A DNA stretch of 64,000 nt from Candidatus Fraserbacteria bacterium (GTDB lineage: Bacteria; Bipolaricaulota; Bipolaricaulia; RBG-16-55-9; DRXL01). The stretch is taken from NCBI GenBank assembly GCA_947085185.1, contig CAMTVK010000006.1, positions 34,839-98,838 on the forward strand, given 5' to 3'. Of the stretch, positions 6,833 through 36,832 are shown piece by piece (the stretch's first letter is position 1; the number at the start of each line of letters is the position of its first letter). A program made the translations under genes and the position numbers. A model generated the notes under the pieces. The model had not been told where the DNA came from. It searched no databases and was given only the letters and a program-made list of their open reading frames with translations.

Positions 6833-7053
6833 TTGCCCTGGCGTTCCCAGCTATAATAATATGTGCTCTCGCGCGTGTCTGTGCTCTTCTCTTACGTATG
6901 GCAGGAGAGCAAGGCTGCGAGCGGGCGGAAGTGCCATGTGCATAGTGCGCATCTGGAGCTGCAAGCGTGTGGGAGGTCGGACGGGAGAGCTCTGGCTCGT
7001 CGTGCTCCTCGCGCTGTCTTTCTATTTCTACGGTGTGAAGAGGTGGCTCGCGT

Positions 7054-13702: not shown

Positions 13703-13728
13703 TCCGTGTTCTCCGTGATTCAAAAATA
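13685..13728 (-). repeat. Copy 1 of ~45-nt CACGGA-hexamer array element (minus-strand sense TGAATCACGGAGAACACGGAATGGCCCGGAGAACACGGAAAG)
   Basis: Four CACGGA/CCCGGA hexamers spaced 9-10-9 bp, spanning the stop of the upstream CDS and the ATG of the downstream CDS. About 85% identical to the copy at 50827..50872. Confidence 0.5.
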
Positions 13729-19204: not shown

Positions 19205-20566
19205 CTAGCGTAACATGACTTGCACTTCGATCACACCTGTGCCCTCGGTGAGGGGCTCGAGAGCCTTCCCGATCACGGCGCCGACGCACTGGCTCTTCTC
19301 CGGGCACCTCATCGCATACCCGGGGATCGGCGAGCTCACCAACAGATCGCCGACTTGGATGGCTCCATACTTGGCTGTCACCTTGACGGGCACGCGCCCG
19401 GCCAACGCCAAGATCGGGCGAGTATCGCTGCTCTTGGCGCTCTGGTTGCCCAATATAACTCCCGGAGCTGTCGAAATGACCCCGGCGACGCGATGGCTTA
19501 TGGCCTCGCGGGCCTTGCGGAACTTGCCCGGATTGTCTGGGTCAATCTCGACGACATCGCCCGCTTCGAGCGGTTCGGTAGTATCGATGCGCTCGGCGAC
19601 GTCGGCCCCGCCGCCGGTGATCGAGCCAGCGGCGTAGACGTTGCCCGTCGTGCGCTCGACGCGGAAGATCAAGCCTGTAGCTGAGCCAGAGCCCGTGTTA
19701 TAAATTTCCAGAGCATTGGTACCGCTGGAGCTGTCGATGCGCAGGCCCGGCTGATTGGCAGTGTTATTGATATGGGTCTTGGCGCTGGGGCTGGAGGTGC
19801 CAATCCCGAGGTTGCCATCGGCGGTCAACCTCATCCATTCAGGGGGCGCTGTGCTACCGCTATGCGCCGCCCACGCAAACCCTCCCCCACTCACGTGGCG
19901 GAAGTCGGATCGACTAGCCCCAGCCACATCCCGGTAGACGATCCCCACGACACTCGTAGGTGTTGAGAATTCTATCCGTCCTACTTCGCTGGTACCACTA
20001 TTGAGAAACCAGCGCTGGAGACCCGTAGGTCGAATGTGGGAGCGCTCGATGCTTCCGCTGTCAGTGTAGAACTCTACAATGTTCACGCCCGCTGGGGCGT
20101 TCACCCGCAGGTTATCGTTGATCGTCTGCACCAACGGCTGCAGGCGCGGATTTTGAGCTACTTCCCCCACCGTAGGGCCACTCAACAGGGTCAAGGGCGG
20201 TGCCACTTGTCCGGCCTTCCCCCGCACCAGCGCTAATTTCCCCAGCTTCTTGGTCACGTTGCCAAACTCATCTTTCATAGTGACGGTATAGAGATAGACG
20301 CCACTGGCGACCGGCTGCCCTTGCATATTCAACATCTTCCAATCCAACGCCACGCCATTCACAGCCCCCGAATCGAAGATCTTCTGACCCGCTAACGAGA
20401 TGATCTCGACTCGCAGCTCCTTGACCGAGCCTTGGGCGGAGAACCGCACCGCATCGCTGTAGGTTGTCACGGTCAGGGAGACTGACTGGGCCAAGACTCC
20501 CAAGCCCAGCACGAACACGACTGCCACCCCGACAAGAAGACCCCGCAGAACCTGCCGCTGCATCAT
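19205..20566 (-). CDS. Secreted beta-sandwich protein (FlgD-Ig-like N-terminal domain) with the same unassigned C-terminal domain
   Basis: Signal peptide (MMQRQVLRGLLVGVAVVFVLGLGVLA). N-terminal domain has a GVYLYTV-type Ig-like motif. The C-terminal ~155 aa is ~65% identical to the C-terminus of the S8 peptidase. Confidence 0.6.
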   Translation of the reverse strand: MMQRQVLRGLLVGVAVVFVLGLGVLAQSVSLTVTTYSDAVRFSAQGSVKELRVEIISLAGQKIFDSGAVNGVALDWKMLNMQGQPVASGVYLYTVTMKDEFGNVTKKLGKLALVRGKAGQVAPPLTLLSGPTVGEVAQNPRLQPLVQTINDNLRVNAPAGVNIVEFYTDSGSIERSHIRPTGLQRWFLNSGTSEVGRIEFSTPTSVVGIVYRDVAGASRSDFRHVSGGGFAWAAHSGSTAPPEWMRLTADGNLGIGTSSPSAKTHINNTANQPGLRIDSSSGTNALEIYNTGSGSATGLIFRVERTTGNVYAAGSITGGGADVAERIDTTEPLEAGDVVEIDPDNPGKFRKAREAISHRVAGVISTAPGVILGNQSAKSSDTRPILALAGRVPVKVTAKYGAIQVGDLLVSSPIPGYAMRCPEKSQCVGAVIGKALEPLTEGTGVIEVQVMLR

Positions 20567-20651
20567 CGTGATGCGCCTCCTTCTTCATGACGAGTGTGTA
20601 ACACAAATTATAGACCTTACTCCCCCCTTCTGTCTAGTCCATCCTGCTCTA

Positions 20652-22073
20652 TCAATCAAGAAGGCTCTCCAACAAGCTCTCATAAGTCTGAACAGCTACG
20701 GATAAGTCAAACTGTGCTATGCGCTCGCGACCCCTGTGAGCCAGCTCCTGCCGCAGCTGCCTGTCTAAGAGCAGCTGCTCTATCCCATGAGCTAAAGCCT
20801 TGGGATCACCTGAGGGCACAAGCAAACCCGCTCGCCCTTCGTCTAAATACTCTCGTACACTTGGTGAGCAATCGGTTGCGAGCACAGGAAGCCCCAATGC
20901 CATCGCCTCGCCGATGACATTGGGCAGTCCTTCTGTCAAGGACGAGAGTACAAAGAGATCTGCGCGTGCCATGTACTTCCAAGGATTTTCCTGGAAGCCC
21001 AACAGCGCAACTCGATCAGTTAAGCCCAATTCTACAATCAAGTTCTCTAAAGCACTTCGTTCCTCACCCTCACCGATGATCACGAGGTTCACTTTCATTG
21101 AGAGCTGTGCCACCGCCCGAATCAGTATATCAAACCCTTTGAGCTTGACGAGTCGGCCCACAGCTATGAGGAGCGGTTCCCTTCGCTCATCGAACCAGGG
21201 GTGGAGGACTGGCTCAGCTGCTTGTACACATACGTTTTGCACGTCAATAGGGTTGTAGATTACAACAATCTTCTCTGCAGGCAGACCGAAGTTCTCGATG
21301 AGATCTCGTTTGATGCCCTGCGCCACCGCTACTATCACATCGGCTCGTGGGTAAAGGAGCCGAACAAGCCAGCGCAATAGGAAACGCTCATAGCGCTCAA
21401 GTTTGCTGTGTTGAAGAATCCGGCTAGTCACATCATGGACATTGACCACAACTTTCAGGTGACGATCAAAGAAAAGCTTCGCCAGAATTGCGATGATATT
21501 TGACAATGTGATTGAGCTGACTACGACTCCACAGCCGCTCTCCCGCGCTACCGCCGCGAGTCGGCGCGCCTGCCACAGCAGAGAATAGCAGTAGTAAGCA
21601 GGTTTAATCTTGCGTAACCAACGTAAGAGCGTGCCGATCAATCTTAAAGGCACACTTGCAACAAAGTAAGTTGTTGTGAGTATCACTTGCGAAAAACGCT
21701 GCTTTGCACGAGACAGGAGAGCTTTGATCTGCCAGAGGAAAGACCTGAATGCCCTTTGGGGAGGTTCTGTAACTGATATAAAGAAGGCTCTAACTGCTTG
21801 TATGCCCTTCCCCAATACTCTCAAGGAGCGGACTAATCGAGACGCTTTATTCTCAACAATAGAAAGCGCGAAGATCTCCAATAGAGGCACACTGGTGCTG
21901 ACTATTCTCAGGAGCGGACCGCGCTTCAGTTGCAGAAGCAGGATAGGTCGATGGGACCTCAAATTGTTGACGTAATTGATGCAGACGCGCTCGGCCCCTC
22001 CGGCCTCTAACGTTGGGATGAAGAAAAGAACTCTTTTTTTAATCTGCTCCAAATCCGCTTGTGGCATAGTCAC
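20652..22073 (-). CDS. Glycosyltransferase family 4 (GT4) with extended N-terminal region
   Basis: C-terminal GT-B domain with the E-x7-E region (SLTEGLPNVIGEAMALGLPVLATD). Confidence 0.75.
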   Translation of the reverse strand: MTMPQADLEQIKKRVLFFIPTLEAGGAERVCINYVNNLRSHRPILLLQLKRGPLLRIVSTSVPLLEIFALSIVENKASRLVRSLRVLGKGIQAVRAFFISVTEPPQRAFRSFLWQIKALLSRAKQRFSQVILTTTYFVASVPLRLIGTLLRWLRKIKPAYYCYSLLWQARRLAAVARESGCGVVVSSITLSNIIAILAKLFFDRHLKVVVNVHDVTSRILQHSKLERYERFLLRWLVRLLYPRADVIVAVAQGIKRDLIENFGLPAEKIVVIYNPIDVQNVCVQAAEPVLHPWFDERREPLLIAVGRLVKLKGFDILIRAVAQLSMKVNLVIIGEGEERSALENLIVELGLTDRVALLGFQENPWKYMARADLFVLSSLTEGLPNVIGEAMALGLPVLATDCSPSVREYLDEGRAGLLVPSGDPKALAHGIEQLLLDRQLRQELAHRGRERIAQFDLSVAVQTYESLLESLLD

Positions 22074-23245
22074 ACAACCTCCATGATAAGTTGCTCGTAT
22101 TGTTTGACTATCTTAGGAGCATCAAAGTCTTTAGCCCGTTGAGGACCTAGCTCAGCGAGCTTAGTGCGCAGTTCATGATCCTGTAACAACTTGAGCATTG
22201 CGGCGGCCAAAGCTTCTTCATCTGCTGGTGGCACTAAAACCCCGTACTGCCCGCCTTGTAAGATTTCAGCAGGCCCCGAAAGACAATCGGTCGAGATGAC
22301 AGGGCAACCGCAAGTCAGAGCCTCCAAAATGACGTTGGCAAGGCCCTCCACTAGTGACGGAAGGACCAGTGCAGTTACCTTGCTCATGTAGCTAAAAGGA
22401 TTGGGTGTAGCTCCAATAAAGTCAACTTTGTCTTCCACATGCAAGGCTTTCGCCAGCTCTTGCAGTGCCCCTTTCTCTTCTCCTTCACCAACGACTAGTA
22501 ACCGTGCTGGCTTCTCTGAATTTGCGATTTTTAAAGCATTGAGCAAGATATCTACACCCTTGAACTTGACGAGTCTACCGACAAAGAGGAAGATCGGAAC
22601 CTGAGCTGCAAACCAAGGGTGAGTGACAGGTTCTTGACTTAAATCCTGGATTTTTCGGACATCTAAAGGGTTATAGATCACATGCAAATGGTTGTGGGGA
22701 ATCCCCCATTTGGTGGTAAGGTCATCAGCAATTCCTTGACTAATACAAACGATTGGATTGAGCTCTCGCAGGCGAGGTGCCCAAAACATCCGAAACTCCC
22801 TGTGGGCGGGATTCTGCATGAGGGTATTTGAAAGGTGGCTGGCTAAGCGGGCGATTACTTTTACTTTGTGGCGCAGGCTAGCCTTATAAGCCACGAGGGA
22901 GGTTAAGAAATTCGTTGTTAAAACGCAATCTATTTGCCGTTGGACAAGATGATGTGTTAATCTGCTTGACAACAATTCTAGCCACACGAAGGATTCGCAC
23001 TCTCCCAGCAAGCTCAGAGGGATGTCGACGACCAACTTTTCCGAAGGTGGTAAGGGTTGCGAATTCAACACAAACACGGGGATACCGGATGGAAGGGAGT
23101 AAAATGACTGACCTTCATGGAAAACTGTCAACTCAACCGCTATGTGCGAGCTGACATGCTGCAAGAAGGTCGAGACGAACCGCTCCACCCCGCCGGGAAC
23201 ATGCAGGGTCTCGGTCAGCAGAGTCATCTTAACTTTACGTGCCAT
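22070..23245 (-). CDS. Glycosyltransferase family 4
   Basis: VGRLVKFKGVDILL...SLVEGLANVILEALTCGCPVISTD GT4 signature. Translationally coupled to its neighbours (4-nt overlaps). Confidence 0.8.
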   Translation of the reverse strand: MARKVKMTLLTETLHVPGGVERFVSTFLQHVSSHIAVELTVFHEGQSFYSLPSGIPVFVLNSQPLPPSEKLVVDIPLSLLGECESFVWLELLSSRLTHHLVQRQIDCVLTTNFLTSLVAYKASLRHKVKVIARLASHLSNTLMQNPAHREFRMFWAPRLRELNPIVCISQGIADDLTTKWGIPHNHLHVIYNPLDVRKIQDLSQEPVTHPWFAAQVPIFLFVGRLVKFKGVDILLNALKIANSEKPARLLVVGEGEEKGALQELAKALHVEDKVDFIGATPNPFSYMSKVTALVLPSLVEGLANVILEALTCGCPVISTDCLSGPAEILQGGQYGVLVPPADEEALAAAMLKLLQDHELRTKLAELGPQRAKDFDAPKIVKQYEQLIMEVV

Positions 23246-24422
23246 AAGTGTCTCGTATGACCTGCACGTACTGATTTACGATCTTCCGAGCTTCGAAATC
23301 CTGAGCCCGTTGTCGGCCTTGTTCGGCAAGCTGCTGTCGCAACGCAGGATCACTTAGCACTTTGGTGATAGCCTCTGCAAGGGCTCGAGCATCAGCCACC
23401 GGCACCAAGAGTCCATAACGCCCGCCACCCAGGATCTCAGCGGGACCGGAGGGACAATCTGTTGCAATCACGGGACAGCCGCAAGCAAGAGCCTCTGCAA
23501 TTACATAGCCAAATCCCTCATACAAAGAAGACAAGACGAACACCGTCGAACGGGCAAAATACTTGAACGGGTTCTTTTGCTTGCCTGCAAACCAAATGCA
23601 GTGTTGAATACCTAATTCCGCAGCTAAATCCTCTAATCTTTGGTGCTCGTCCCCTTCACCTAGAAGGATCAAACGTGCAAGGTTACCCTGCTTGTGGACA
23701 AGGCTTAGTGCACGGAGCAGATAGTCAAAACCTTTCTGCGGAGCTAAGCGACCTGCTGCCGTGATGATCGGCGTGCATTCAGCCATCCAAGGATGGTCAA
23801 CAGGCTCTGACACCAGTTTCTCGATCTGTTGAAGATCCAGAGGATAGGGGATCACTGTGATCTGCTGTTGGGTAACTTTGAAGTTATGCATAAGATCGGA
23901 AGCTACGCCTTCGCTTGGACAAACAATTTTGTCGGCCTTCTGAAGATGCTCACGCCCCAAGAACATGTAAAGCGGGCCTTTGGGAGCATGGGAAAGCATT
24001 GTGGAAGCGTGATTATCCACGGAGCCTACGAAGCAGATCTCCTTCGGCCAATACTTGCGTGATAGCAAACACAACGTGGACGCGAAGAGTTCGCGTGCGA
24101 ACACGACATCCGGCCTCCTTTGGTGTACCAGTTCGGCCAGCTTAAGGGCAGTTAGCTCAAGCCAAATAAAGTCTTCACGGGCTCCCAAGAGTTGAATCGG
24201 GATATCCACGCGAATCGAGTCGACATGCGGCAGCGGATTGCGCTCCAAGATGTGCGTTTGAATTTCCAGAGGGATAGGGTAAAAAACCTCTCGATTAAAG
24301 ATCATGACTAATTCGACGTCAAATAAACTGCGATCCAAATATCTCAAAAGAATGGTTATATTACGTCCTACTCCGCCCAGAGGCAAGCCGTGGGTGACGA
24401 TCATCAGCTTAATTTTCCTCAT
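23235..24422 (-). CDS. Glycosyltransferase family 4
   Basis: AGRLAPQKGFDYLL...SLYEGFGYVIAEALACGCPVIATD. Confidence 0.8.
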   Translation of the reverse strand: MRKIKLMIVTHGLPLGGVGRNITILLRYLDRSLFDVELVMIFNREVFYPIPLEIQTHILERNPLPHVDSIRVDIPIQLLGAREDFIWLELTALKLAELVHQRRPDVVFARELFASTLCLLSRKYWPKEICFVGSVDNHASTMLSHAPKGPLYMFLGREHLQKADKIVCPSEGVASDLMHNFKVTQQQITVIPYPLDLQQIEKLVSEPVDHPWMAECTPIITAAGRLAPQKGFDYLLRALSLVHKQGNLARLILLGEGDEHQRLEDLAAELGIQHCIWFAGKQKNPFKYFARSTVFVLSSLYEGFGYVIAEALACGCPVIATDCPSGPAEILGGGRYGLLVPVADARALAEAITKVLSDPALRQQLAEQGRQRAQDFEARKIVNQYVQVIRDTYGT

Positions 24423-25623
24423 TATTGCTCTCCTCCCCAGACAGCAGCCTCAAGATTCTTTTTGTATACCGGCTAGTTATTTGGGGGGCATCAAAGGCTA
24501 AGGCGCGCGTTGGAGCCAGCCGGGCAAACTGTTCTCTGAGCTGCGGGTCTCTCAGTAGCTTCAGAATTCCTTCGGCCAGCGCTGGGGGACTTTCCATCGA
24601 CACTAAGAGGCCGTACTGTGTTGTCCCCTCAGCTAAGATTTCCGATGGCCCATACGGGCAGTTGGAAGCCACGATGGGGCAGCCGCAAGCCAGCGCTTCC
24701 ACCAAGGCGTAACCGAAACCTTCCCACCGAGAAGGAAAGGCGAATACCGTACACTTCTGCATGTACTTAAAAGGGTTCTGTTGGAAGCCTAAAAAAGCGA
24801 CATGAGGTGCTATGCCTAACTCCAGAGCGAGTTTGCGAAGGACGTCCTCCTGCGGACCTTCCCCGATGATGACACATCGCGCCGGAAGCTCCGCCCTGAC
24901 GCGAGCGAGCGCTTGAAGCAGGAGATCAAACCCTTTTTGCGGGGCAAGCCGACCCACCGCCAAGATAACAGACTCCAGCCCAGAGAAGAAGGGATGGTCC
25001 ACACTTTCTTTTGCTAGTTGCTGCACAGCTTTGACATCAATAGGGTACTGGATCAAAGTGATCTTTTCGGCTGGTATGCTGTAGCTTTGTTGTAACACTT
25101 CAGCGACACTGGCACTGGCGGTGATGAGACCATCTGCTTCACATAGTCTTGTTCGCGCCAGCTGCTTGTACAGCTCCCCATGCGACGCGGCACGAAAGTC
25201 GCTGGCAATCTCGGCACCAGCGACGACTATCACTTTGATAGAAGGAGCATGCTTTTTGGCGTATAAGCTAAGCATTCCGCAAAACAAGTTGAATGCCAAA
25301 ACCACTTGCGTCTTCTGCACCGTTATCACATCGGCCAATTTATGAGCCATGACTTCAAGCCAAGCAAGATCAGCGCTATAGCTCAGTGATTGTAAGGGTA
25401 TTTCAACATGTATTGATGGTATATTAGGCATTGGAGTCTTTTCTAGAACATGCCAGGGCACGTCACTGGGGATAGGGAAGAAGGGCTCTTGGTCAAAGAT
25501 GGTAACGAGTTCGATATCTAGCATCTTTCTGTCGAGATGGTGCAACAAGATGGAAACACACCGCTCCATACCCCCAACGCTTAAGGTTGGTGAGATGAGT
25601 ACAACCTTTGTTTTATGAGCCAT
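24409..25623 (-). CDS. Glycosyltransferase family 4
   Basis: VGRLAPQKGFDLLL...SRWEGFGYALVEALACGCPIVASN. MAHKTKVVLI start preferred over the track's upstream start at 25686. Confidence 0.8.
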   Translation of the reverse strand: MAHKTKVVLISPTLSVGGMERCVSILLHHLDRKMLDIELVTIFDQEPFFPIPSDVPWHVLEKTPMPNIPSIHVEIPLQSLSYSADLAWLEVMAHKLADVITVQKTQVVLAFNLFCGMLSLYAKKHAPSIKVIVVAGAEIASDFRAASHGELYKQLARTRLCEADGLITASASVAEVLQQSYSIPAEKITLIQYPIDVKAVQQLAKESVDHPFFSGLESVILAVGRLAPQKGFDLLLQALARVRAELPARCVIIGEGPQEDVLRKLALELGIAPHVAFLGFQQNPFKYMQKCTVFAFPSRWEGFGYALVEALACGCPIVASNCPYGPSEILAEGTTQYGLLVSMESPPALAEGILKLLRDPQLREQFARLAPTRALAFDAPQITSRYTKRILRLLSGEESNNEEN

Positions 25624-27635
25624 CAAGCCTCCAGTCTTCTTCTTACAGTATAGAATATTGTCACTCCTTGCACGAGCACAAACCAAGCTGCGTAAACATA
25701 GATGAAAACTAAAAAAGGCGCGGTATGCACTACCAGCCGCGGATCAATACCCAAGGGCACTAAAAAAGCTATCAGGTTAATTGTTAGGATTGGGAAAATC
25801 AGAATTTCGCGAAATCTGGAGAATATCACAAGCAGCAATCCCATTAGATACAGATAATATAAAGGGGTGATTTCAAGCCCCGCTTGCTTCCAGAACAGAT
25901 GAGTGGGTCTGAGGAATAGATCGAGATAGCCACTTATAGTTCTCGAAATGATTTCACCAAGGCTATGCATGCCAAAGATATATTGAAATGTCGTCACGGG
26001 TGCTCCACTGTGACCCTTTGCCCGAAACTGCTCTAACGTGGGGCAGCCCTCACAGCTGATGCCTTTGAGAACCACAAATTCATAGTTTCTATACCACTTG
26101 GCATGGACGTTCGCGCTCCAGAACGGATCGCCGAACTTCTGATAACTATAAGCTAAATACGGTGCGAGCAACAGCATCAAAACAGCTATAGGAATGAAAA
26201 GCTTCTTCCAAACAATCTTCTGCCGCCAGAAGGCGTAGCCCCACAGGGGAAGAACAAAGACTAAACTATTGATCTGTTGCAAGACGGCTGCTGCACCCCA
26301 CCCACTAAGACCGGCCAATCGCTGCTTTTCTCCCAGCCGCTCTTGCCTTATAAGCACGTGATAAGCCAGCATGAGAATGGCGATAGTATAGAGCTCTAAG
26401 CGCAGACCACGCACACTCATAAAGATCAAGTATGGGTTAATCGCCAGTAGCGCAACCACGAGTAAAGCCAGCACTGGTTGTTTTGTGTAGTCCTTGAAAA
26501 ACTTGTAGGCAGCTACCAATGTGAGCAAGGAGAGCACGAGAGTGAGCATGCGCAGGTTGAGATCCGAGGAGCCAACGACTAAGAACCAGAGCTTGGTAGC
26601 CCAAATCCATAAGGGCTCCCTAAAGCTTGTGTCATAAAGATGTCGCATATTATCAGCAATTTGTCGGTAGCCAACTGCATCGGGGTCAAGGGGGCGGTAC
26701 TGAAACTCCGTTAGCGCCTCCCAGCGCAGCACGAAGCCCAGTGCGATGATCGCTACCAGCAATGAGCTTACAACAAACTTCTGTACCCCCTCTCCTGGCT
26801 TTATCAGCGGAGCCATACTAAGTGCAATTACAGTTCCAGCTGCATACAGGAACCAGATCCAAGGAATAGCGAGGTCTTCCACATAAGGCCCCAGCTGGGG
26901 CGTGACAAACCGCGCAAGAGAAGGCAAGTTCGCCAGGGGAAGCCCCGTGAAGATCCAGTTGGGCCAGAGTGCGCTGGCCAAAGCCTCGGCACCTAAAGCA
27001 GCAGCAAAGATGGCGAGAGCAAATTTCAGCTGCACAGCTCGCGCCCAAGCATAGAGGCTCAAAGGGATAGCGATGAACAGAAAGAGGCCCGGTAAGTAAG
27101 GCAAGGCGATCGGGTTTTTAATTTTGACTATCTGAATCCAATCTAAAGCAACATAGGTCTCAGCAGAACCCGTCTCTGCAGCGCTTGCAATGATCCGTAA
27201 AAAAATTTCGGAAGAGCCTAGGGCATATGGAGTCAAAAGCACATAACGGTTGGCTACTTGCAGGTTAGACCCAACCGTTTGATAATGAACCCCATCCGTA
27301 GAGATTTCGAGACGAATCTCCTCTAGCCCGGTCCAGTGAACTCCGAGGTTTAGATTGAGATCTTCGTCGGGCTCTTTAGTGATTTTATAGATGACTTCGC
27401 CACGCTGGCCTGATCTAAGATAGAGGCCATCGACCTCTACTTCCCAATCGCCCAGTACTTGAGCATCTTGCTGGATTTTCTGTGCCCTATCGTTAATGTG
27501 ATCTAAGTAGGTGCTTAGCACAGTTGGAGTACCAACGAGTCTGAGCAGCTCCTCACGATAGATAAGCACTGCGATAAAAGCAGTGAGTAAGATAAGCATT
27601 GGCCATTGCAGCTGTTTGATATGCTTCATAACCAC
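25623..27635 (-). CDS. GT-C fold polytopic membrane glycosyltransferase (ArnT/PMT-like, family 39/83-like) with N-terminal ~170-aa extracytoplasmic domain
   Basis: 670 aa, more than 10 TM helices. First extracytoplasmic loop has an Asp-containing motif (RPLDPDAVGYRQIADNM). Sits next to a GT2 polyprenol-phosphate glycosyltransferase and an ArnE-like gene. Confidence 0.5.
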   Translation of the reverse strand: MVMKHIKQLQWPMLILLTAFIAVLIYREELLRLVGTPTVLSTYLDHINDRAQKIQQDAQVLGDWEVEVDGLYLRSGQRGEVIYKITKEPDEDLNLNLGVHWTGLEEIRLEISTDGVHYQTVGSNLQVANRYVLLTPYALGSSEIFLRIIASAAETGSAETYVALDWIQIVKIKNPIALPYLPGLFLFIAIPLSLYAWARAVQLKFALAIFAAALGAEALASALWPNWIFTGLPLANLPSLARFVTPQLGPYVEDLAIPWIWFLYAAGTVIALSMAPLIKPGEGVQKFVVSSLLVAIIALGFVLRWEALTEFQYRPLDPDAVGYRQIADNMRHLYDTSFREPLWIWATKLWFLVVGSSDLNLRMLTLVLSLLTLVAAYKFFKDYTKQPVLALLVVALLAINPYLIFMSVRGLRLELYTIAILMLAYHVLIRQERLGEKQRLAGLSGWGAAAVLQQINSLVFVLPLWGYAFWRQKIVWKKLFIPIAVLMLLLAPYLAYSYQKFGDPFWSANVHAKWYRNYEFVVLKGISCEGCPTLEQFRAKGHSGAPVTTFQYIFGMHSLGEIISRTISGYLDLFLRPTHLFWKQAGLEITPLYYLYLMGLLLVIFSRFREILIFPILTINLIAFLVPLGIDPRLVVHTAPFLVFIYVYAAWFVLVQGVTIFYTVRRRLEA

Positions 27636-27651
27636 TCCTGTGGGAAAGCCG

Positions 27652-28401
27652 CTAACGTCTCAGCAACAGGTTGTACTTTAGGATGTACCAGATGGCCTTT
27701 AGCCCATCCCTCAAGGTGATCTTCTTGCCCTCTTCATATGTGCGTCCGTAGTAAGAGATAGGGACTTCATAGATGCGACAGCCAAGGCGAGCGACCTTGG
27801 CCGTGATCTCGGGCTCAAATCCGAACCGATCTTCTTTGAGATTGATCTTTTGTAGCACCTCGCGCCGGAACATCTTATAGCACGTCTCCATATCGGTCAG
27901 ATTCATGTTGGTGAACATGTTGGAAAGAGTAGTGAGAAAGAGGTTGCCCACGTAATGCCAGAAGTACAAGACGCGGTGCGGGCCGCCCAAGAAGCGTGAA
28001 CCATAGACGACATCGGCCACGCCACGCCGGATGGGCTCCAATAGCTTATGGTATTCTTGCGGATCGTACTCCAGGTCAGCATCTTGAATTACGATGACGT
28101 CTCCAGTTGCCTCCTGAAAGCCGCGTCGTAACGCTGCTCCCTTGCCGCGATTGCGCTCCTGAAAGATGACTTTAATGTTGTCCACGTAAATCCTCTGATT
28201 GAGTTGCGGCAATTCAAATCCCTCCGGGTTAGAGTTGTGCTGTGCCTCTAAGAGCTGTTGCAAAAACTCGCGCGTCCCGTCGGTCGAGCCGTCATCAACA
28301 ATGATGATCTCCTTGTCAATATCTACTTCCTGGACACGCTTGAGCACTTCTTCAATATAAGCCCGCTCATTGTAAACGGGCATCACCACGGACAGTTTCA
28401 T
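27652..28401 (-). CDS. GT2 polyprenol-phosphate glycosyltransferase (ArnC/DPM1/GtrB-like)
   Basis: [12 protein letters not shown]...[11 protein letters not shown]...[11 protein letters not shown]...YGSRF, the classic GT2 DxD/Q(R)xxRW family. Confidence 0.8.
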
Positions 28402-28405
28402 CGCT

Positions 28406-28762
28406 TCAACCCCTCACGATCAGGGCTACGCCCCCCAAGATGAGTGCGATACCTACCCACTGTGTGAATGACAGCGGCTCGCCCAAGAGCTTAGCCGAAA
28501 TCAGAGCAACCCACACATAGCTTGTCGCAATCACCGGATACAGCACCGACAAATTGCCGTGTTTGAGCGCCACGATGAACAAGATGGCGGAAAGGCCGTA
28601 AAGGGCCATCCCGCCGAGAATCTTGAAATTCGTCAGCCAACTCCATACGCTCAGCGATATTGAGGGCGAGCCCAGCTTGAACAACAGCTGGCCCAGTGAG
28701 CCCATCAGCGCACAAAATGCCGCCAGTGCAATCGCCCAAGCTTTGGTCTCCATCCGACTCAC
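28406..28762 (-). CDS. Small 4-TM DMT/SMR-like protein (ArnE/ArnF-like undecaprenyl-phosphate-sugar flippase subunit)
   Basis: 118 aa, four TM helices, EamA-like C-terminal motif [24 protein letters not shown]. Confidence 0.6.
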
Positions 28763-29709
28763 GCTCCCTTGTTCAATAAGCTTCGGAAATAGTCAAGTGT
28801 GCGGCGCAGGCCTTCTCGTCGTGTGACCTTGGGCTCCCAACCCAGCCGCTCCTTGGCCAAGCTAATGTCGGGGCAACGCACTTTAGGGTCGTCAGCAGGC
28901 AGCGGCTCAAAGACGATTTCACTGCGGCTATTGGCCAACTCAATGATCTCTTTAGCCAGCGCTAATATTGTGACCTCGTCAGGATTACCCAGATTGACCA
29001 GACCGCTCTCATAAGACTGGAGCAGCCGGTAAAGCCCCTCAATCATATCGTCTATATAGCAGAAGCTTCGGGTCTGTGTGCCGTCTCCGTAGATGGTCAA
29101 TGGCTTATTATGAAGAGCTTGCCAGCAGAAGTTCGAGACAACTCGTCCGTCATGGGGGCGCATGAGTGGACCATACGTATTGAAAATGCGAGCGATTTTC
29201 ACATCTAGTCCATAGCACCGGTGATAGGCCATCGTCAGCGCTTCAGCATAGCGTTTGGCTTCGTCATAACAACTGCGCGGTCCAACGGGATTGACCCGCC
29301 CCCAGTAACTCTCTGGCTGTGGGTTCACCTCCGGATCGCCGTAGACTTCGGATGTTGAAGCGAGCATAAAGATAGCCTCTTTCTGCCTTGCTAGCTCGAG
29401 CATATAATATGTGCCGAATGCCCCAGCTTGTAATGTCTCGATTGGGTATTTCCCATAATCAGAAGGGCTGGCAGGACTGGCTAGATGGAGCACATAGTCT
29501 AGCGAATCTGCAAATGAGAGGGGCTGAGTCACGTCGTGCTGCAAGAAGTGAAAGTTGGGGTTGCTCAAAAAGGGTGTTATATTCTCCCGACGGCCGGTCA
29601 ATAAGTTATCCACGCACCACACCTCATAGCCCTCTTGCACCAGACGAGCACATAAATGCGCTCCAATGAAGCCAGCTCCTCCTGTAATCAGCACTTTCTT
29701 TGCGCTCAT
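28759..29709 (-). CDS. uxs: UDP-glucuronate decarboxylase / UDP-xylose synthase
   Basis: Short-chain dehydrogenase/epimerase fold. Near-colinear similarity to eukaryotic and bacterial UXS: [56 protein letters not shown]. Confidence 0.85.
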
Positions 29710-31007
29710 GGCCGGCCTACCCCATAGTATATGAAGCCAAGCTTACGCAGCCTCTCAGGATTATAAATATTGCGGCCGTCAAATATAACTGGTGTTTTCA
29801 TTGCTCGCTTAATTCTCTCAAAGTCTGGAGTACGGAATTCACCCCACTCTGTAAGCAGTACCAGGGCTTCCGCAGCTTGCACGCTTCCATAGTGATCATC
29901 GACATACTCGATCCGGTCACCAAAGATGGTCCGAGCCTTGTCGGTAGCCCTTGGATCATGAGCTACCACGTCCGCTCCATGTTCCAAGAGCTTTTCAATA
30001 ATGGCCAGTGAAGGGGCTTCACGTATATCGTCGGTACCTGGCTTAAATGCCAACCCCCAGATTGTGATGCGGCGGCCCTTCAGATGCCCTTGGAAGTGAT
30101 CGTAGATCTTCTTGAAAAAACGAAGGCGCTGCTCTTCGTTCACCATGTCGACAGCAGCAGCGATACGCAATGGGCAGCTGTGATCTTGTCCCATCCGGAC
30201 AAGGGCTTTGACATCTTTGGGCAGGCAAGAACCTCCATAGCCTACACCGGGGAAGAGAAAAGCATAACCGATACGACTGTCCGCTCCGACCCCCTTGCGT
30301 ACCTGCTCAATGTCCGCTCCTAGCTGCTCGCATAAGGCGGCTAGTTCGTTCATCAGGGAGATCTTGGCAGCCAGTATCAAGTTGGAGGCGTATTTAGTCA
30401 TCTCAGCGCTCCGGTGGTCCATAATAATAATGGGTTTTTCAGTGCGCACAAAGGATGCATAGAGTTCTCTCATCACTTCGGCGGCTTTCAGACTGCTGGT
30501 GCCAATAATGACTCGATCGGGCTTGAGGAAATCATTCAGGGCCGTGCCTTCTTTAAGAAACTCAGGGTTGGAGACAACTTCAAGCTCATAACGAGTATAT
30601 CGAGCGATGAGTTCTCGAACCTGTTCGGCTGTCCCGACGGGTACAGTGCTCTTAAGCACGATGATCTTTGGACCATTCATGGAACGTGCAATCTTCTCCG
30701 CGACGGTAAAGACCTGGCTGAGATCAACGCTGCCATCGGGGTTGGAGGGCGTACCCACGGCGATGAAGATGATCTCAGAGTTGCGAACAGCTTCAGCAAG
30801 ATCCGTAGTGAACTGGAGCCGCCCCTCTCTTATATTGCGTTCGAGCAGCTCTTCCAAGCCCAGCTCATAGATGGGTGAATGGCCTTGCTGAAGCTGAGCA
30901 ATTTTCTGAGCATCGCTATCAACGCCGATAACATGGTTGCCGCTATCGGCAAAGCAGGCTGCTGCTGTCAAGCCAACATACCCTGTCCCTATGACCGCAA
31001 GATACAT
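29706..31007 (-). CDS. ugd: UDP-glucose 6-dehydrogenase
   Basis: [13 protein letters not shown], catalytic GGSCLPKD, ~433 aa. Confidence 0.9.
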
Positions 31008-31017
31008 AGGCTATCGA

Positions 31018-31250
31018 GTTACGAGGAACACGCCACCACCGATTAATAATATACCCAAGAGCCGAGCCAGCGTAAGCGACTCCCCTAAGAATGCCCAGGA
31101 GATCAGCGGCAGAATAAGATACACTCCTCCCCCAAATAAAGGTAAAGCATAACTAATTCATGCCCTTCTTCATCAAGACCTGCCCGCTGAGAGCGAGAAC
31201 CAGGACAAAGAATATCAAGAAGATGACACGGTTCATTTCGTATCCTCCTG
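31018..31250 (-). pseudogene. Decayed second ArnE/ArnF-like small membrane protein gene (in-frame stop plus frameshift, internal deletion)
   Basis: Strong RBS (AGGAGG) then MNRVIFLIFFVLVLALSGQVLMKKGMN and a stop. The +1 frame continues as ...LGESLTLARLLGILLIGGGVFLVTR, which matches the C-terminal EamA motif of the intact paralog at 28406..28762. Combined length ~75 aa against 118 aa. Lower GC than the surroundings. Confidence 0.4.
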
Positions 31251-31574
31251 TGTTGAAACATTATAATGGCTTCGATTTCGATGGTCAAGCGCTTATAGCT
31301 AGGCCATTGTGATTGCGTGGATAAGCCCAGATCATCTTGGTATATCTCCCTCTCGACAGTATACAGATACGTGAGTGGCGGTACCAGCCAAACCAGCGCG
31401 CCTGCGCAGAGCTGATGCTGGAGAATTGCCAAGGGATTTCTGAAAATTAGAGAAAGCCATACACGCCTGAAAGCCGCTACATACTCGCTATCAAAATCGA
31501 TGAGCTGACGATTAAAATCATGCGCATAGACTATAGAATGCATAGACGTACACACATAGGCTTTGCTCCATTTA

Positions 31575-32318
31575 TCAAACTGCTAGGAGGGCCTCATAAT
31601 CATCTAAGACGGAGGCAACTTCTCCCAAAGCCTTTAGCTTCCCTTGGGAGAGCAAACACGCACGGTTGCACAGGTGTTTGACAGCTGTTATATTGTGTGA
31701 AACAAAGACGAGTGTCTTCCCCTGACGGCGAAGCTCCATCATCCGTTCCAGACACTTCTTCTGAAAGTGCTCATCTCCTACAGCAAGCACCTCGTCAATC
31801 AATAAGATATCCGGGTCAAGATGCGCTGCGATCGAAAATCCCAAGCGTGCATACATCCCTGTTGAGTAGTTCTTAACGGGAACATCAATGAACTCCTCAA
31901 GCTCAGAAAATTCTACAATATCCTTATAGATTCTATCAATCTCGCGGCGCGTCAGCCCATACAGCGACGCATTGAGATAGATGTTCTCTTGCCCAGTCAG
32001 CTCGTGATGGAACCCCACCCCCAGTTCGATCATCGGCGCCACCCGCCCGCGCACGATAATTTCACCCTTGGTGGGATAGAGCGTGCGCGCGATTAATCTC
32101 AGTAATGTGCTTTTGCCCGACCCGTTTGGGCCGATCAACCCCAGCGCCTCCCCGTGCTCCACCGTTAGGTTAATGTCTTGCAAAGCCCAGAAAGGTTCAC
32201 AGTGCTCTCGATAGCGCCTGTTGAAAAGTCCAACGAAGCGCTCTTTCAGTGAGTCGGCGCGGTTGTGTCGGATGAGAAATTGCTTCCAGACGTTGCGAAT
32301 CTCAATAGCTGGGAGCAT
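31575..32318 (-). CDS. ABC transporter ATP-binding protein, polysaccharide/teichoic-acid export type (Wzt/TagH-like, no C-terminal carbohydrate-binding domain)
   Basis: Walker A GPNGSGKST, LSGGQ-like signature, Walker B. MLPAIEIRNVWKQF start whose ATG overlaps the stop of the upstream permease gene. Confidence 0.85.
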   Translation of the reverse strand: MLPAIEIRNVWKQFLIRHNRADSLKERFVGLFNRRYREHCEPFWALQDINLTVEHGEALGLIGPNGSGKSTLLRLIARTLYPTKGEIIVRGRVAPMIELGVGFHHELTGQENIYLNASLYGLTRREIDRIYKDIVEFSELEEFIDVPVKNYSTGMYARLGFSIAAHLDPDILLIDEVLAVGDEHFQKKCLERMMELRRQGKTLVFVSHNITAVKHLCNRACLLSQGKLKALGEVASVLDDYEALLAV

Positions 32319-33106
32319 CAGAGATCCTCCGCAAAGAACCGCTGCCGCCGCCGAAAGACCCAACTTCCCACCCCAAGCGCAGCTAGCGCCCACAAACTCC
32401 CCAACAGCAGCATCTGAGCATCAGGCCAGCGGCCCCAGTAGAGCATATCGTGATACGCTGTGATGTACGCTGTCATGGGGTTAAGCTCAAAGAGCCAGCG
32501 TACCCGCCCCGGAACCATCGAGAGATGATAGATAATAGGCGTCATCCAGAACAGAATCATCAGAGCGACTTCAGTCAGATACTTGACATCGCGATAGGAG
32601 ACGGTAACAGCCGAGAGAAAGAGCGCTACGCCTAGAGTGAAGACCACTTGTAAGAGCAGGACAAGAGGGTAAGCTGCTATTGCTGGGGTCCACGGCGCAC
32701 CGAGAAAGACGAGCGCCGGGAAGAAGACGAGCAGCGCCAAGAGAAACTGCACAAAGTGAAAGAACACCGTAGCGATGGGCAAGATCTCACGGGGAAACGC
32801 GATCTTTTTGATGAGATTCGCATTGCCGATGATGGCTTCCGTAGAAGCTATCGCTGTCCCGCTGAAGAGATTCCACGGCAAGATCCCCACAATCAAAAAG
32901 AGCGGAAAGTTCTCCACCTGGACGCGCAGGATGTACTTGAGCGCTACCGAGTAGACGACGATCATCATCAAGGGGTTTAGCAAAGACCACAAAAATCCCA
33001 AGAACGAGTTGCGGTACTTCACTTTAAGGTCCTTGATAACCAAGTTTTTCAAAAGCTCTTGGTAGTGGAAGACAGAAGGTCGCGTCTCAATTGCTTGGAT
33101 ACTCAT
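32318..33106 (-). CDS. ABC-2 type transporter permease (Wzm/TagG-like)
   Basis: 262 aa, six TM helices. N-terminal KVKYRNSFLGFLWSLLNPLMMI ABC-2 motif. Confidence 0.8.
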   Translation of the reverse strand: MSIQAIETRPSVFHYQELLKNLVIKDLKVKYRNSFLGFLWSLLNPLMMIVVYSVALKYILRVQVENFPLFLIVGILPWNLFSGTAIASTEAIIGNANLIKKIAFPREILPIATVFFHFVQFLLALLVFFPALVFLGAPWTPAIAAYPLVLLLQVVFTLGVALFLSAVTVSYRDVKYLTEVALMILFWMTPIIYHLSMVPGRVRWLFELNPMTAYITAYHDMLYWGRWPDAQMLLLGSLWALAALGVGSWVFRRRQRFFAEDL

Positions 33107-35037: not shown

Positions 35038-35088
35038 TTTACAATGAATGCTATGGAGCGCAGCTGCGACTGGATGGACCAAGCGAGA
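35038..35088 (+). repeat. Copy B of ~50-nt duplicated upstream element
   Basis: GTTTACAATGAATGCTATGGAGCGCAGCTGCGACTGGATGGACCAAGCGA. Overlaps the 5' region and possible alternative start of the orphan MNT gene. Confidence 0.5.
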
Positions 35089-35098
35089 ACGATCCGTT

Positions 35099-35449
35099 AT
35101 GCCGAGCAGATCATCAACTTTTGTGCAGGTCTTCTATCCCAAGCTGAGCCAAGCTGAAGTCATCACACGTCTCAGAGAGGGGCTGAAGGAGCTGCGAAAG
35201 CAGTTCCCCATCGCCCGGGCAGTGCTGTTTGGCTCCTACGCCAAGGGGAATTATACCGTGGGCAGCGACATTGATTTGATGATCGTCTACGAGGGGGAGG
35301 CACGACCCGACGCCTATGCTCTCGTGAAGAAGATCCTTGATCTGCCACGCCTGGAGCCCCATCTGTATACTAAGACAGAATATGAGAGACTCGGTGAGAC
35401 GCTCCGCAAGATGACTGAGGGCGGGATCGTGCTGGTGGGGCGCTCATGA
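35099..35449 (+). CDS. Orphan minimal nucleotidyltransferase (MNT-like)
   Basis: AVLFGSYAKGNYTVGSDIDLMIV NTase motif. Its stop overlaps the ATG of the downstream WecA-like gene (ATGA). Start could be the track's upstream ATG at 35048 inside the repeat. Confidence 0.7.
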   Translation: MPSRSSTFVQVFYPKLSQAEVITRLREGLKELRKQFPIARAVLFGSYAKGNYTVGSDIDLMIVYEGEARPDAYALVKKILDLPRLEPHLYTKTEYERLGETLRKMTEGGIVLVGRS

Positions 35450-36432
35450 GCATCTTCTGGGTTGTGCTGCTTGTGTCGGGCGGAAGCGCCTTTTTCTTAC
35501 TACGCATTCTCATCCCCAAGCTCGCGCAAGCGGGAATCGTCGGAAAAGATATGAACAAGCCCGGCCAGCCTCCCGTGGCCGAGATGGGCGGGCTCGGGAT
35601 TGTACTCGGCTTTGGAGCAGGCGTGCTCACGGTGATCGCCCTCAAGACTTTTCTCAAAATAGAGGTACTGACGACGGTGAGCGTTGCCGAGCTCCTTGCC
35701 GTCTTATCTACCGTCTTGGTGATCGCGCTCGTTGGGATGTTGGACGATCTCATTGGGGTGCGCCAAGGCTGGAAGGCGATCATACCCGCTCTAGCCGCCG
35801 TCCCCCTCATCGCTCTTGCGGTAGGCCAGACCACTATGAGATTGCCCCTTATCGGCACCGTGAATTTCGGGATCTTCTATCCTTTGGTGCTTGTGCCGGT
35901 GGGCGTGACCGGTGCGGCGAATGCGTTGAACATGCTCGCGGGATTTAATGGGCTAGAAGCGGGCATGGGCGCTATAGCTGTGGCCGCCCTCGCAACAATC
36001 GCTGTTCGTTTAGGGGAGATGACGGCGTTGGCGCTCCTGCTTGCGGCGTTGGGGGCATTGGTGGCAACGCTCTACTTCAATTGGTATCCTGCTCGAGTCT
36101 TCATTGGCGACGTGGGGACGCTCACCATCGGCACGATGATTGCCACAGCCGTGATCGCGGGGAACTTCGAGTGGGCCGGCGTGATTGTGATCATCCCTCA
36201 CGCTCTAGATTTCGTGCTCAAAGCGCGCAAGGGGTTTCCCAGCACCGGCTGGCATGGAGAGTATCGTGAGGGCAAGCTCTATTGTCCTGAGCACGGCCCG
36301 GTAGGGCTGGCCCAATTGATCTTGAAGCTCGCCGGAGGGATGCACGAGCGCACGCTCGTCTTAGTCTTGATGGGTTTTGAAGCCCTCTGTGGCCTGCTGG
36401 CGATCTGGGTCTATTGGCGGGCTGTGATCTAG
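35446..36432 (+). CDS. Polyprenol-phosphate sugar-1-phosphate transferase of the MraY/WecA family (GT4-class initiating enzyme)
   Basis: About 10 TM helices. Conserved DDLIG, NALNMLAGFNGLEAG and VFIGDVGT motifs of the MraY/WecA/WbpL family. Confidence 0.8.
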   Translation: MSIFWVVLLVSGGSAFFLLRILIPKLAQAGIVGKDMNKPGQPPVAEMGGLGIVLGFGAGVLTVIALKTFLKIEVLTTVSVAELLAVLSTVLVIALVGMLDDLIGVRQGWKAIIPALAAVPLIALAVGQTTMRLPLIGTVNFGIFYPLVLVPVGVTGAANALNMLAGFNGLEAGMGAIAVAALATIAVRLGEMTALALLLAALGALVATLYFNWYPARVFIGDVGTLTIGTMIATAVIAGNFEWAGVIVIIPHALDFVLKARKGFPSTGWHGEYREGKLYCPEHGPVGLAQLILKLAGGMHERTLVLVLMGFEALCGLLAIWVYWRAVI

Positions 36433-36448
36433 CGTGTATACTAAGAAT

Positions 36449-36832
36449 ATGCCCAATCGCGCTCAAGACTGGCTCCGCCAAGCCCAGCGAGACCTCGAAC
36501 AAGCCGAAGACTCTCGCCAGGCCGGACGACACGAATGGGCGTGCTTTGCCGCGCAGCAAGCTGCCGAAAAGGCTGTGAAAGCCCTCCATCTGCACCTTGG
36601 ACAAGAGGCCTGGGGGCACGTCATCGCCAAGCTCCTTAGCGAGCTCCCCACACCACCTCCAGAGGACCTGATCGAAAAGGCCCGAACACTCGACAGCTTC
36701 TATATCCCCCCACGATACCCTAACAGCCATCCCGAAGGAGCACCGTTTGAACATTACGGTCCGTTGCAGAGCAAGGAGGCCGTCAGTTATGCCCGTGAGA
36801 TCCTTGAGTTCGTCCGTGCTCAGATGGCCTGA
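36449..36832 (+). CDS. HEPN-domain protein (HepT-like)
   Basis: All-helical ~127 aa, N-terminal RAQDWLRQAQRDLEQAE, directly followed by an overlapping MNT gene. The track start is a GTG at 36434, 2 nt after the upstream stop. Confidence 0.65.
   Translation: MPNRAQDWLRQAQRDLEQAEDSRQAGRHEWACFAAQQAAEKAVKALHLHLGQEAWGHVIAKLLSELPTPPPEDLIEKARTLDSFYIPPRYPNSHPEGAPFEHYGPLQSKEAVSYAREILEFVRAQMA

Follow-up and report, generated by a model that had tools for sequence, protein, structure and literature searches.

A predicted lipid-linked sugar-transfer module beside a UXS-type decarboxylase gene in a glycan-export operon of a Candidatus Fraserbacteria bacterium, with xylose as a possible cargo

In several bacterial systems a finished glycan or lipid A is decorated outside the membrane by three components, namely a polyprenyl-phosphate glycosyltransferase of family GT2, a small or dedicated flippase, and a membrane glycosyltransferase of the GT-C fold. 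Examples are Gtr in Shigella and Salmonella, Gml in Klebsiella (acting on an O-antigen made by an ATP-binding cassette (ABC) transporter-dependent pathway), Gac in streptococci, and Arn, which acts on lipid A (PMC11127046, PMC11194591). Here we analyze a stretch of 64,000 nucleotides from contig CAMTVK010000006.1 (assembly GCA_947085185.1, Candidatus Fraserbacteria bacterium), hereafter called the window, whose positions serve as coordinates throughout. In this window ugd and uxs, genes for a UDP-glucose 6-dehydrogenase and a UXS-type UDP-glucuronate decarboxylase, are followed by genes for a small EamA/ArnE-like membrane protein, a GT2 and a GT-C. The locus very probably encodes a three-component module for the extracytoplasmic transfer of a lipid-linked sugar. 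Xylose is the single most likely sugar for this module to carry, with a probability somewhat short of even, and the basis for choosing it lies wholly in the gene neighborhood.

The closest described systems share some of these features and lack others. Gtr, GmlABC and GacI/J/K/L resemble the locus in pairing a polyprenyl-phosphate GT2 with a GT-C for the decoration of a completed glycan outside the membrane, with a small or dedicated flippase where the locus has a flippase candidate; they also keep their donor genes conserved while the acceptor-side genes vary, and Gml likewise works with an ABC-exported polymer (PMC11127046). The locus differs from them in that its GT2 is short and soluble, whereas GtrB has two C-terminal transmembrane (TM) helices, in that its flippase candidate is EamA/ArnE-like rather than GtrA or Wzx, and in that its GT-C belongs to an uncharacterized family with an N-terminal domain resembling a carbohydrate-binding module (CBM). 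It also has a dedicated ugd-uxs pair, whereas Gtr, Gml and Gac use housekeeping UDP-glucose (UDP-Glc), UDP-Gal or UDP-GlcNAc (PMC11127046). In the pentofuranose systems of Citrobacter youngae O1/O2, a side branch is added outside the membrane from an undecaprenyl-phosphate-pentose, including undP-Ribf and undP-Xylf (Kelly et al. 2024, PMC11127046). Their donor is made from phosphoribosyl pyrophosphate (PRPP) by a UbiA-like polyprenyl phosphoribose synthase (PPPRS) and a HAD phosphatase, followed by epimerization, and a MATE-family flippase and a GT136 GT-C with a C-terminal CBM deliver the sugar as a furanose (PMC11127046). The predicted extracytoplasmic addition of a pentose side branch and a GT-C with a CBM or CBM-like domain are points of likeness, but the window operon has no PPPRS (UbiA-like), HAD or MATE domains, its predicted route runs from UDP-xylose (UDP-Xyl) through the GT2 to a pyranose, and its GT-C is set apart from GT136 by description only.

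The Arn pathway is similar in taking UDP-glucuronate (UDP-GlcA) from Ugd and in having a decarboxylase of the short-chain dehydrogenase/reductase (SDR) type, a polyprenyl-phosphate GT2 and a GT-C; its small four-TM flippase subunits are of the DMT type, like the flippase candidate here, and the sugar that it carries is a pentopyranose, as predicted for the locus. The locus departs from it in that it has no formyltransferase, aminotransferase or deformylase and its decarboxylase is a reducing UXS (1e-105 against UXS1, 1e-25 against ArnA). In mycobacteria, PpgS and Rv3779 serve the addition of galactosamine to arabinogalactan, and polyprenyl-phosphate-methylthioxylose serves the capping of lipoarabinomannan. 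There too a short soluble DPM1-like GT2 makes a decaprenyl-phosphate-sugar and a GT-C adds the sugar to a cell-wall glycan outside the membrane, but the sugars and the GT-C families differ and no UXS is known to be involved. The window GT2 matches the PpgS model weakly (57.6 bits, cut-off 370). Methylthioxylose is also mentioned in PMC11127046. In the literature searched we found no characterized bacterial system with the composition of this locus, in agreement with the preliminary description of the window, and no description of a lipid-linked xylose made from UDP-Xyl, the PRPP-derived undP-Xylf being the only related case to turn up.

Five genes of a probable sugar-transfer module

The five genes named in the preliminary description all lie on the minus strand at the positions given there. 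The features of the module are as follows.

29706..31007, minus strand: UDP-glucose 6-dehydrogenase (Ugd), with three UDPG_MGDP_dh domains; TIGR03026 462 bits, TuaD model 498 bits
28759..29709, minus strand: UXS-type UDP-glucuronate decarboxylase (UDP-xylose synthase; extended SDR, EC 4.1.1.35), recognized by similarity to human UXS1 and by motifs
28406..28762, minus strand: EamA/DMT protein of 118 aa with four TM (hydrophobic) segments, candidate flippase for a lipid-linked sugar; PF00892 35.5 bits
27652..28401, minus strand: soluble GT2 of the polyprenyl-phosphate glycosyltransferase class, 249 aa, with no TM segment and with DADLEY at residues 107-112; PF00535 138 bits
25623..27635, minus strand: GT-C-fold membrane glycosyltransferase of an uncharacterized family, 670 aa; PMT_2 32.6 bits (cut-off 26.1)
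27102..27524, minus strand: N-terminal extracytoplasmic domain of the GT-C, a predicted beta-sandwich (CBM-like), residues 38-178, about 140 aa between TM1 and TM2, modeled as all-beta with a predicted local distance difference test (pLDDT) of about 70-87

The genes are tightly packed. The ugd and uxs genes overlap in ATGA and the uxs and eamA genes in GTGA, the gaps from eamA to GT2 and from GT2 to GT-C are 4 and 16 nucleotides, and the GT-C stop overlaps the ATG of the GT4 gene that follows. Thus uxs is translationally coupled to the gene of the flippase candidate in the window, and it is coupled to the GT2 gene in two related loci, L006 and L010.

It is evident that the decarboxylase is a genuine UXS, as had been proposed, and not an epimerase or another SDR. 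It matches human UXS1 (PDB 4gll/2b69) with an E value of 1e-105 and 357 bits, colinear over residues 3-312, and is 53% identical to the core of the human enzyme, whereas the next family among the other solved SDRs is matched at 1e-43, the UDP-GlcA 4-epimerase 6zl6 at 6e-36, and ArnA at 1e-25. The motifs GGAGFIG (residue 10), STSEVYG (118), YDEAK (148) and QTRSF (212) are identical to the aligned residues of human UXS1. Being closer to UXS1 than to ArnA or U4kpxs, the enzyme is predicted from its sequence to form UDP-Xyl and not to release UDP-4-keto-pentose. An Rgt/GalA-like system, in which the SDR would be a UDP-GlcA 4-epimerase, was considered and is ruled out by the epimerase and UXS1 values given above. 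L-arabinose as the sugar was considered unlikely; the window operon has no second SDR and no UDP-Xyl 4-epimerase.

The top solved relatives of the GT2 are all polyprenyl-phosphate glycosyltransferases: PfDPMS (profile E value 8e-32), ArnC (9e-25) and GtrB (4e-22). Its DxD motif, DADLEY, aligns with DADLQH, DADLQN and DADLQD of these solved relatives (PMC12690121). The donor sugar is not readable from the active-site residues of the GT2 when these are compared with PfDPMS, ArnC and GtrB. As a possible donor marker we considered Asp39 of PfDPMS, which contacts guanine; this residue aligns with the conserved second Asp of DDG, which is also found in the UDP-using ArnC, and so is not diagnostic. 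Another contact residue, Lys178 of PfDPMS (to O4/O6), is replaced by Gly in the main GT2 family and by Asp in L006/L010, and we draw no reading from it. The papers on GtrB and ArnC offered no details of the sugar pocket. For the small membrane protein, whose gene lies between uxs and GT2, the top NCBIfam models are ArnE (37 bits, cut-off 92) and ArnF (36 bits, cut-off 99).

The GT-C has no sequence-level match in PDB, and the deposited protein (P0001) starts two codons after the start of the longest open reading frame (ORF). Its AlphaFold model (pLDDT 73) has more than 12 TM helices, and Foldseek places the TM part with STT3 and ArnT, at scores that are weak (E value about 1e-3, TM-score 0.3), with STT3 on top and ArnT similar. 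In an alignment of relatives the motifs PLDPD (residues 315-319), REPLW, RGLRLE and WYRNYE are invariant; counting TM helices in the model would put the PLDPD loop, which comes after a TM helix, on the extracytoplasmic side. A word-indexed search yielded 11 members of this family and an exhaustive search 297 representatives at E ≤ 1e-30, and members usually adjoin a GT2 of the polyprenyl-phosphate type and often an ABC exporter as well.

The N-terminal domain of the GT-C has Foldseek matches to CBM61, CBM4, CBM6 and CBM16. It is present in the window protein, in P0002-4 and P0010 and in many representatives, and absent from P0007-9 and P0011. CBMs that hold the acceptor glycan are known from the GT136, Emb and AftD enzymes (PMC11127046). 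The preliminary description had reported an unusual N-terminal extracytoplasmic domain of about 170 aa. The domain does exist, but it is hardly unusual in kind, being CBM-like, recurrent in the family and of a kind found in other GT-Cs. It is therefore informative rather than anomalous and favors a glycan as the acceptor. At the level of protein class, the features of the GT2, small-flippase and GT-C triad had been described correctly.

The operon and the probable acceptor

The five genes are the middle of a larger minus-strand operon, a context that the preliminary description had overlooked. The order of the operon is GT4, ABC-2 permease, ABC ATPase, a spacer of about 570 bp, ugd, uxs, eamA, GT2, GT-C, four overlapping GT4 genes, and a gene for an anchored protein of 453 aa. 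This layout is standard for an ABC-transporter-dependent glycan pathway. The glycan operon, of about 14 genes, is low in GC, with a GC content of 0.49-0.53 over window positions 20000-32000, which match the operon, versus 0.58-0.60 in the flanks. Such a low-GC island is a trait typical of variable or horizontally exchanged surface-polysaccharide loci. The only nucleotide-sugar genes within the operon are ugd and uxs.

Association of the GT-C with an ABC exporter and GT4 genes is seen in the window and in loci L002-5, L008, L012, L015 and L106. A WecA/MraY-family protein, encoded just upstream of the operon on the plus strand, is the likely primer enzyme for the operon's glycan. The ABC exporter, the five GT4s and the WecA-like primer together point to the addition of side chains to a glycan that the ABC transporter exports, as in Gtr, Gml and Gac, and the acceptor is fairly likely to be the operon's own exported glycan.

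Related loci and the identity of the sugar

Three metagenome contigs, L002-4, come from a close relative (its WecA is 84% identical to that of the window). Between the window and these contigs the ugd, uxs, eamA and GT2 products are 84-89% identical (89% for the EamA-like protein) and the catalytic core of the GT-C is 75% identical, and the DNA aligns continuously over positions 25656-31000. The ABC genes (37-53%) and the GT4s (35-63%), by contrast, have no DNA-level alignment, and the CBM-like domain of the GT-C is 55% identical. The set from ugd to GT-C has thus been kept while its neighbors diverged, a gtrAB-like pattern in which donor genes are conserved and acceptor-side genes are variable. 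L002-4 also carry other sugar-nucleotide genes after the GT-C than the window does. In L002 (12027-15319), and likewise in L003 and L004, these genes encode a GalE-like SDR, a TviB-like UDP-GlcNAc 6-dehydrogenase (458 bits) and an ArnA/U4kpxs-like SDR (144 bits), which may together provide UDP-GalNAcA or UDP-XylNAc for another backbone.

Another locus, L005, keeps the ABC exporter, the GT-C (core 64% identical) and homologs of the shared GT4 types, and is without ugd, uxs, eamA and GT2. Since exactly these four are lacking together, the GT2 is the only glycosyltransferase whose presence tracks UXS. The order GT-C-ugd-uxs-GT2, with uxs overlapping GT2, is found in L006 and L010, which are Bacillota-type contigs (L010 is a Bacillota metagenome-assembled genome (MAG)). 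Their GT2s form an outlier subfamily, with 48-52% identity to all others, and their UXS is 54-57% identical to that of the window, no closer than human UXS1 (53%). In L010, a stand-alone LPG_synthase_TM protein, the flippase domain of MprF (5943-6905), is encoded directly after uxs-GT2 where the window has EamA, and may take over the role of that flippase candidate without being homologous to it. With a different GT2 subfamily, a distant UXS and another flippase-like gene, the same functional set seems to have been assembled twice independently. A true UXS adjoins the GT-C family in 4 of 14 lineages (2 of 12 arrangement types), compared with 1 of 80 randomly sampled loci of the GT2 family (Fisher P = 0.0015 for lineages, 0.044 for the stricter count).

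Several observations weigh against xylose. The window GT2 is an ordinary member of a very large and highly conserved family, which comprises at least 8000 clusters at E < 1e-60 with typical identities of 67-75% between phyla (among them Terriglobia, Deltaproteobacteria and Methylomirabilis), and we found no characterized enzyme among its members. In the columns that are at least 85% conserved in this family, no departure from the family residue occurs in the window GT2 or its UXS-linked relatives, the L006/L010 subfamily alone excepted; a search of the alignment for specificity-determining positions common to the UXS-linked GT2s found none. GT2 relatives of 72-75% identity adjoin other PMT_2 GT-Cs with no UXS within 8 kb, one of them in an amino-sugar cluster. 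Among the 80 metagenome loci of the GT2 family, 79 have no adjacent UXS; only L083 has a true UXS beside the GT2, and the neighborhoods are otherwise heterogeneous. The cultured Hymenobacter and Chondrinema have GT2+GT39 or GtrA-GT2 arrangements with no UXS nearby, that of Chondrinema being a triad of GtrA, GT2 and a membrane protein. Relatives of the GT-C in L005, L007, L008, L106 and Nitrospirales loci are also without UXS nearby, and on Deinococcus plasmids ugd-uxs heads Wzx/Wzy clusters that have GT2 and GT4 genes, all for cytoplasmic glycosyltransferases, and no GT-C. Finally, the flippase role given here to the EamA/ArnE-type protein is a putative one, read from its family. Plasmids are uninformative on the co-occurrence of GT2 and UXS, as the sole plasmid with both has the genes 250 kb apart. 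The GT2 relatives often adjoin PMT_2/GT39 GT-C genes in many unrelated contexts (loci L019-L105), and the pairing of GT2 with GT-C was seen in at least eight different contexts. In one such locus, L101 (4089-7282), the GT2 gene (product 72% identical) overlaps the end of a gene for a spermine-synthase-like membrane protein of 818 aa, with three PMT_2 GT-C genes around it.

At such identity a single donor specificity is expected, so either the whole GT2 family uses xylose, with UXS mostly encoded elsewhere, or the window GT2 uses a common UDP-sugar and ugd-uxs feeds a cytoplasmic glycosyltransferase. The latter could explain the locus if the triad carries a common sugar, for example glucose taken from UDP-Glc, if the UDP-GlcA and/or UDP-Xyl made by Ugd and UXS goes to one of the five cytoplasmic GT4s that build the backbone, and if the adjacency is ordinary operon packing. 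This is the most serious alternative, and we regard it as a real if minority possibility. It fits a GT2 that cannot be told apart at conserved positions from a huge family mostly not linked to UXS, including the close relatives and the 79 loci just described; it also fits the Deinococcus clusters, where ugd-uxs stands with Leloir glycosyltransferases only, GT4s included, and the housekeeping sugars used by Gtr, Gml and Gac. On the other hand, no GT4 co-varies with UXS, as L005, which has neither ugd nor uxs, still has every GT4 type that the window shares with L002-4. The second, independent assembly of GT-C, ugd, uxs and GT2 with another GT2 subfamily and another type of flippase, the enrichment of UXS beside the GT-C family, and the translational coupling of uxs to the flippase gene in the window and to GT2 in L006 and L010 also argue for xylose as the sugar carried.

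Other explanations concern the acceptor and the role of the GT-C. If the GT-C acted like a PMT and O-glycosylated exported proteins with xylose or another sugar, the 453-aa protein and a neighboring subtilase would be candidate substrates. PMT_2 is indeed the only Pfam match of the GT-C, the 453-aa protein is exported, stands at the operon end and is kept there in L004, a secreted subtilase follows, and in L101 and L099 members of the GT2 family accompany PMT_2 proteins away from any obvious polysaccharide cluster. We nevertheless consider this unlikely, given the position of the GT-C between an ABC glycan exporter and GT4s in the window and in the eight other loci listed above, and given an extra domain that resembles carbohydrate-binding modules, with no PMT MIR domains found in the GT-C. 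It is less likely still that the GT-C, instead of transferring a monosaccharide, works like an oligosaccharyltransferase or ligase and passes the lipid-linked polymer en bloc to a final acceptor after ABC export, with GT2 and EamA serving another step. STT3 subunits are the top fold matches of the TM part, and L005 keeps the GT-C beside the ABC exporter with no GT2 or flippase gene. However, the STT3 and ArnT matches are similarly weak, the GT-C sequence has no WWD/WWE motif of the oligosaccharyltransferase WWDYG type, its extra domain is N-terminal and not C-terminal, most loci of the family have a polyprenyl-phosphate-type GT2 directly adjacent, and a separate Wzy_C/O-antigen-ligase-like protein is encoded within the window.

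The preliminary description had framed the locus as Arn-like, with lipid A or core among the possible acceptors, and modification of lipid A or core with xylose in place of L-Ara4N is the least probable of these alternatives, to the point of being very improbable. It would account for the NCBIfam results, in which ArnE, ArnF and ArnC rank among the closest models for the small membrane protein and the GT2, and the Arn pathway likewise begins with ugd. But the Arn models score far under their cut-offs (ArnC 66 bits against 529; ArnA 97 against 777, reflecting the shared SDR fold only), ArnT gives no match, and no ArnA formyltransferase, ArnB or ArnD domains were found in the operon, whose context is one of glycan export. 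The host points the same way. The window SecA is 90% identical to proteins of Candidatus Bipolaricaulota/Acetothermia MAGs, and one closed Bipolaricaulota (Acetothermia) genome was reported to be without lipopolysaccharide (LPS) genes (PMC6092417), which makes lipid A or core an unlikely acceptor. The framing is therefore abandoned and that acceptor disfavored. The Arn analogy describes how the module works, but the locus does not itself belong to the Arn pathway; for annotation, ugd-uxs beside a GT2/GT-C pair is no ground for calling an Arn operon.

Returning to xylose as the sugar carried, a route through the locus can be proposed. Ugd would oxidize UDP-Glc to UDP-GlcA, and UXS, judging from its identity to UXS1, would decarboxylate UDP-GlcA to UDP-Xyl. 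The soluble DPM1/ArnC-like GT2, whose enzyme class is clear, would then move the presumed xylose onto polyprenyl phosphate at the cytoplasmic face; with the inverting mechanism of a GT2, UDP-alpha-D-Xyl would give polyprenyl-P-beta-D-Xylp. A homodimer of the four-TM EamA/ArnE-like protein might flip this lipid-linked sugar across the membrane. The WecA-type primer would start the acceptor glycan, the five GT4s would build it up, and the Wzm/Wzt-like pump would carry it out of the cell. Outside the membrane, the GT-C, with its PLDPD loop exposed there and its CBM-like N-terminal domain holding the acceptor, could add single xylose side branches, which would be alpha-linked xylopyranose if the GT-C is inverting.

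In more general terms, we tentatively propose, as something possible rather than probable, that bacteria make polyprenyl-P-xylopyranose directly from UDP-xylose by means of a DPM1/ArnC-type GT2 and add xylose to surface glycans by means of a CBM-bearing GT-C family. If xylose is indeed carried, polyprenyl-P-xylopyranose would be a new donor, with a supply route for post-export glycan decoration (UDP-GlcA to UDP-Xyl to lipid) that differs from Arn (Ara4N) as well as from the PRPP-derived pentofuranose systems. An uncharacterized GT-C family would gain a function, as perhaps would a very large orphan GT2 family, and the envelope glycan chemistry of Bipolaricaulota, an uncultured phylum with a reported lack of LPS, would come into view for the first time. 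The strongest form of the proposal, in which the whole short GT2 family (at least 8000 clusters) is a general xylose-lipid synthase, is improbable; if true, it would account for the abundance of UXS genes in environmental bacteria. Should the sugar prove to be a common hexose, the locus would be an ordinary case of a system that is widespread. Its architecture is already familiar, the GT-C belongs to a family not yet characterized and the route supplying the donor may be new; for glycobiologists xylose would be a sensible, testable extension rather than a surprise.

Other features of the region

The remaining features of the operon and the putative primer gene are as follows.

35446..36432, plus strand: WecA/MraY-family polyprenyl-phosphate sugar-1-phosphate transferase; PF00953 121 bits, 84% identical in L002/L003
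33118..34272, minus strand: GT4 glycosyltransferase, first gene of the operon; PF00534 and PF13439, 35% identical to the counterpart in L002-4
32318..33106, minus strand: ABC-2 permease (Wzm/TagG-like), glycan exporter; PF01061, galactan-export permease model NF050109 68 bits
31575..32393, minus strand: ABC ATPase (Wzt/TagH-like); PF00005, TagH model NF010066 219 bits, galactan Wzt model NF050108 195 bits
31008..31574, minus strand: spacer with a doubtful ORF of 150 aa (31103-31555) and a promoter-like site (31288-31260); L002-4 have a 46-bp gap instead
24409..25623, 23235..24422, 22070..23245 and 20652..22073, minus strand: four consecutive overlapping GT4 genes, each with PF00534 and PF13692
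19205..20566, minus strand: exported, N-terminally anchored protein of 453 aa, last gene of the operon, with one N-terminal hydrophobic segment

The true start of the ABC ATPase is probably downstream of the start of the longest ORF. The spacer ahead of ugd is probably non-coding, and its ORF has no family match and no TM segment. It possibly holds an internal promoter ahead of ugd: the site at 31288-31260 on the minus strand is an 11/12 sigma-70-like match, although scans for promoters and terminators across the region gave site counts not above those of shuffled sequence. For the four consecutive GT4s, the start of the first being taken from the gene call in L001, the closest NCBIfam models are PglJ/PglH-like, with scores under the cut-offs. 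The exported 453-aa protein shows faint matches to Peptidase_G2 and PorZ and has a 71%-identical partial copy at the corresponding position of L004; it might serve as a protein acceptor or as an enzyme that processes the glycan. The secreted subtilase is encoded after the operon.

Farther along the window (11465-13723), adjoining secA, is a gene for a Wzy_C protein (O-antigen ligase/polymerase-like) of 752 aa with C-terminal TPR repeats, which is a candidate for surface-glycan attachment or polymerization in a phylum reported to be without LPS. The WecA/MraY gene sits between a nucleotidyltransferase gene and a HEPN gene (window 35048-36832), which normally form a toxin-antitoxin-like pair, and a nucleotidyltransferase adjoining the WecA gene recurs in L002 and L003.

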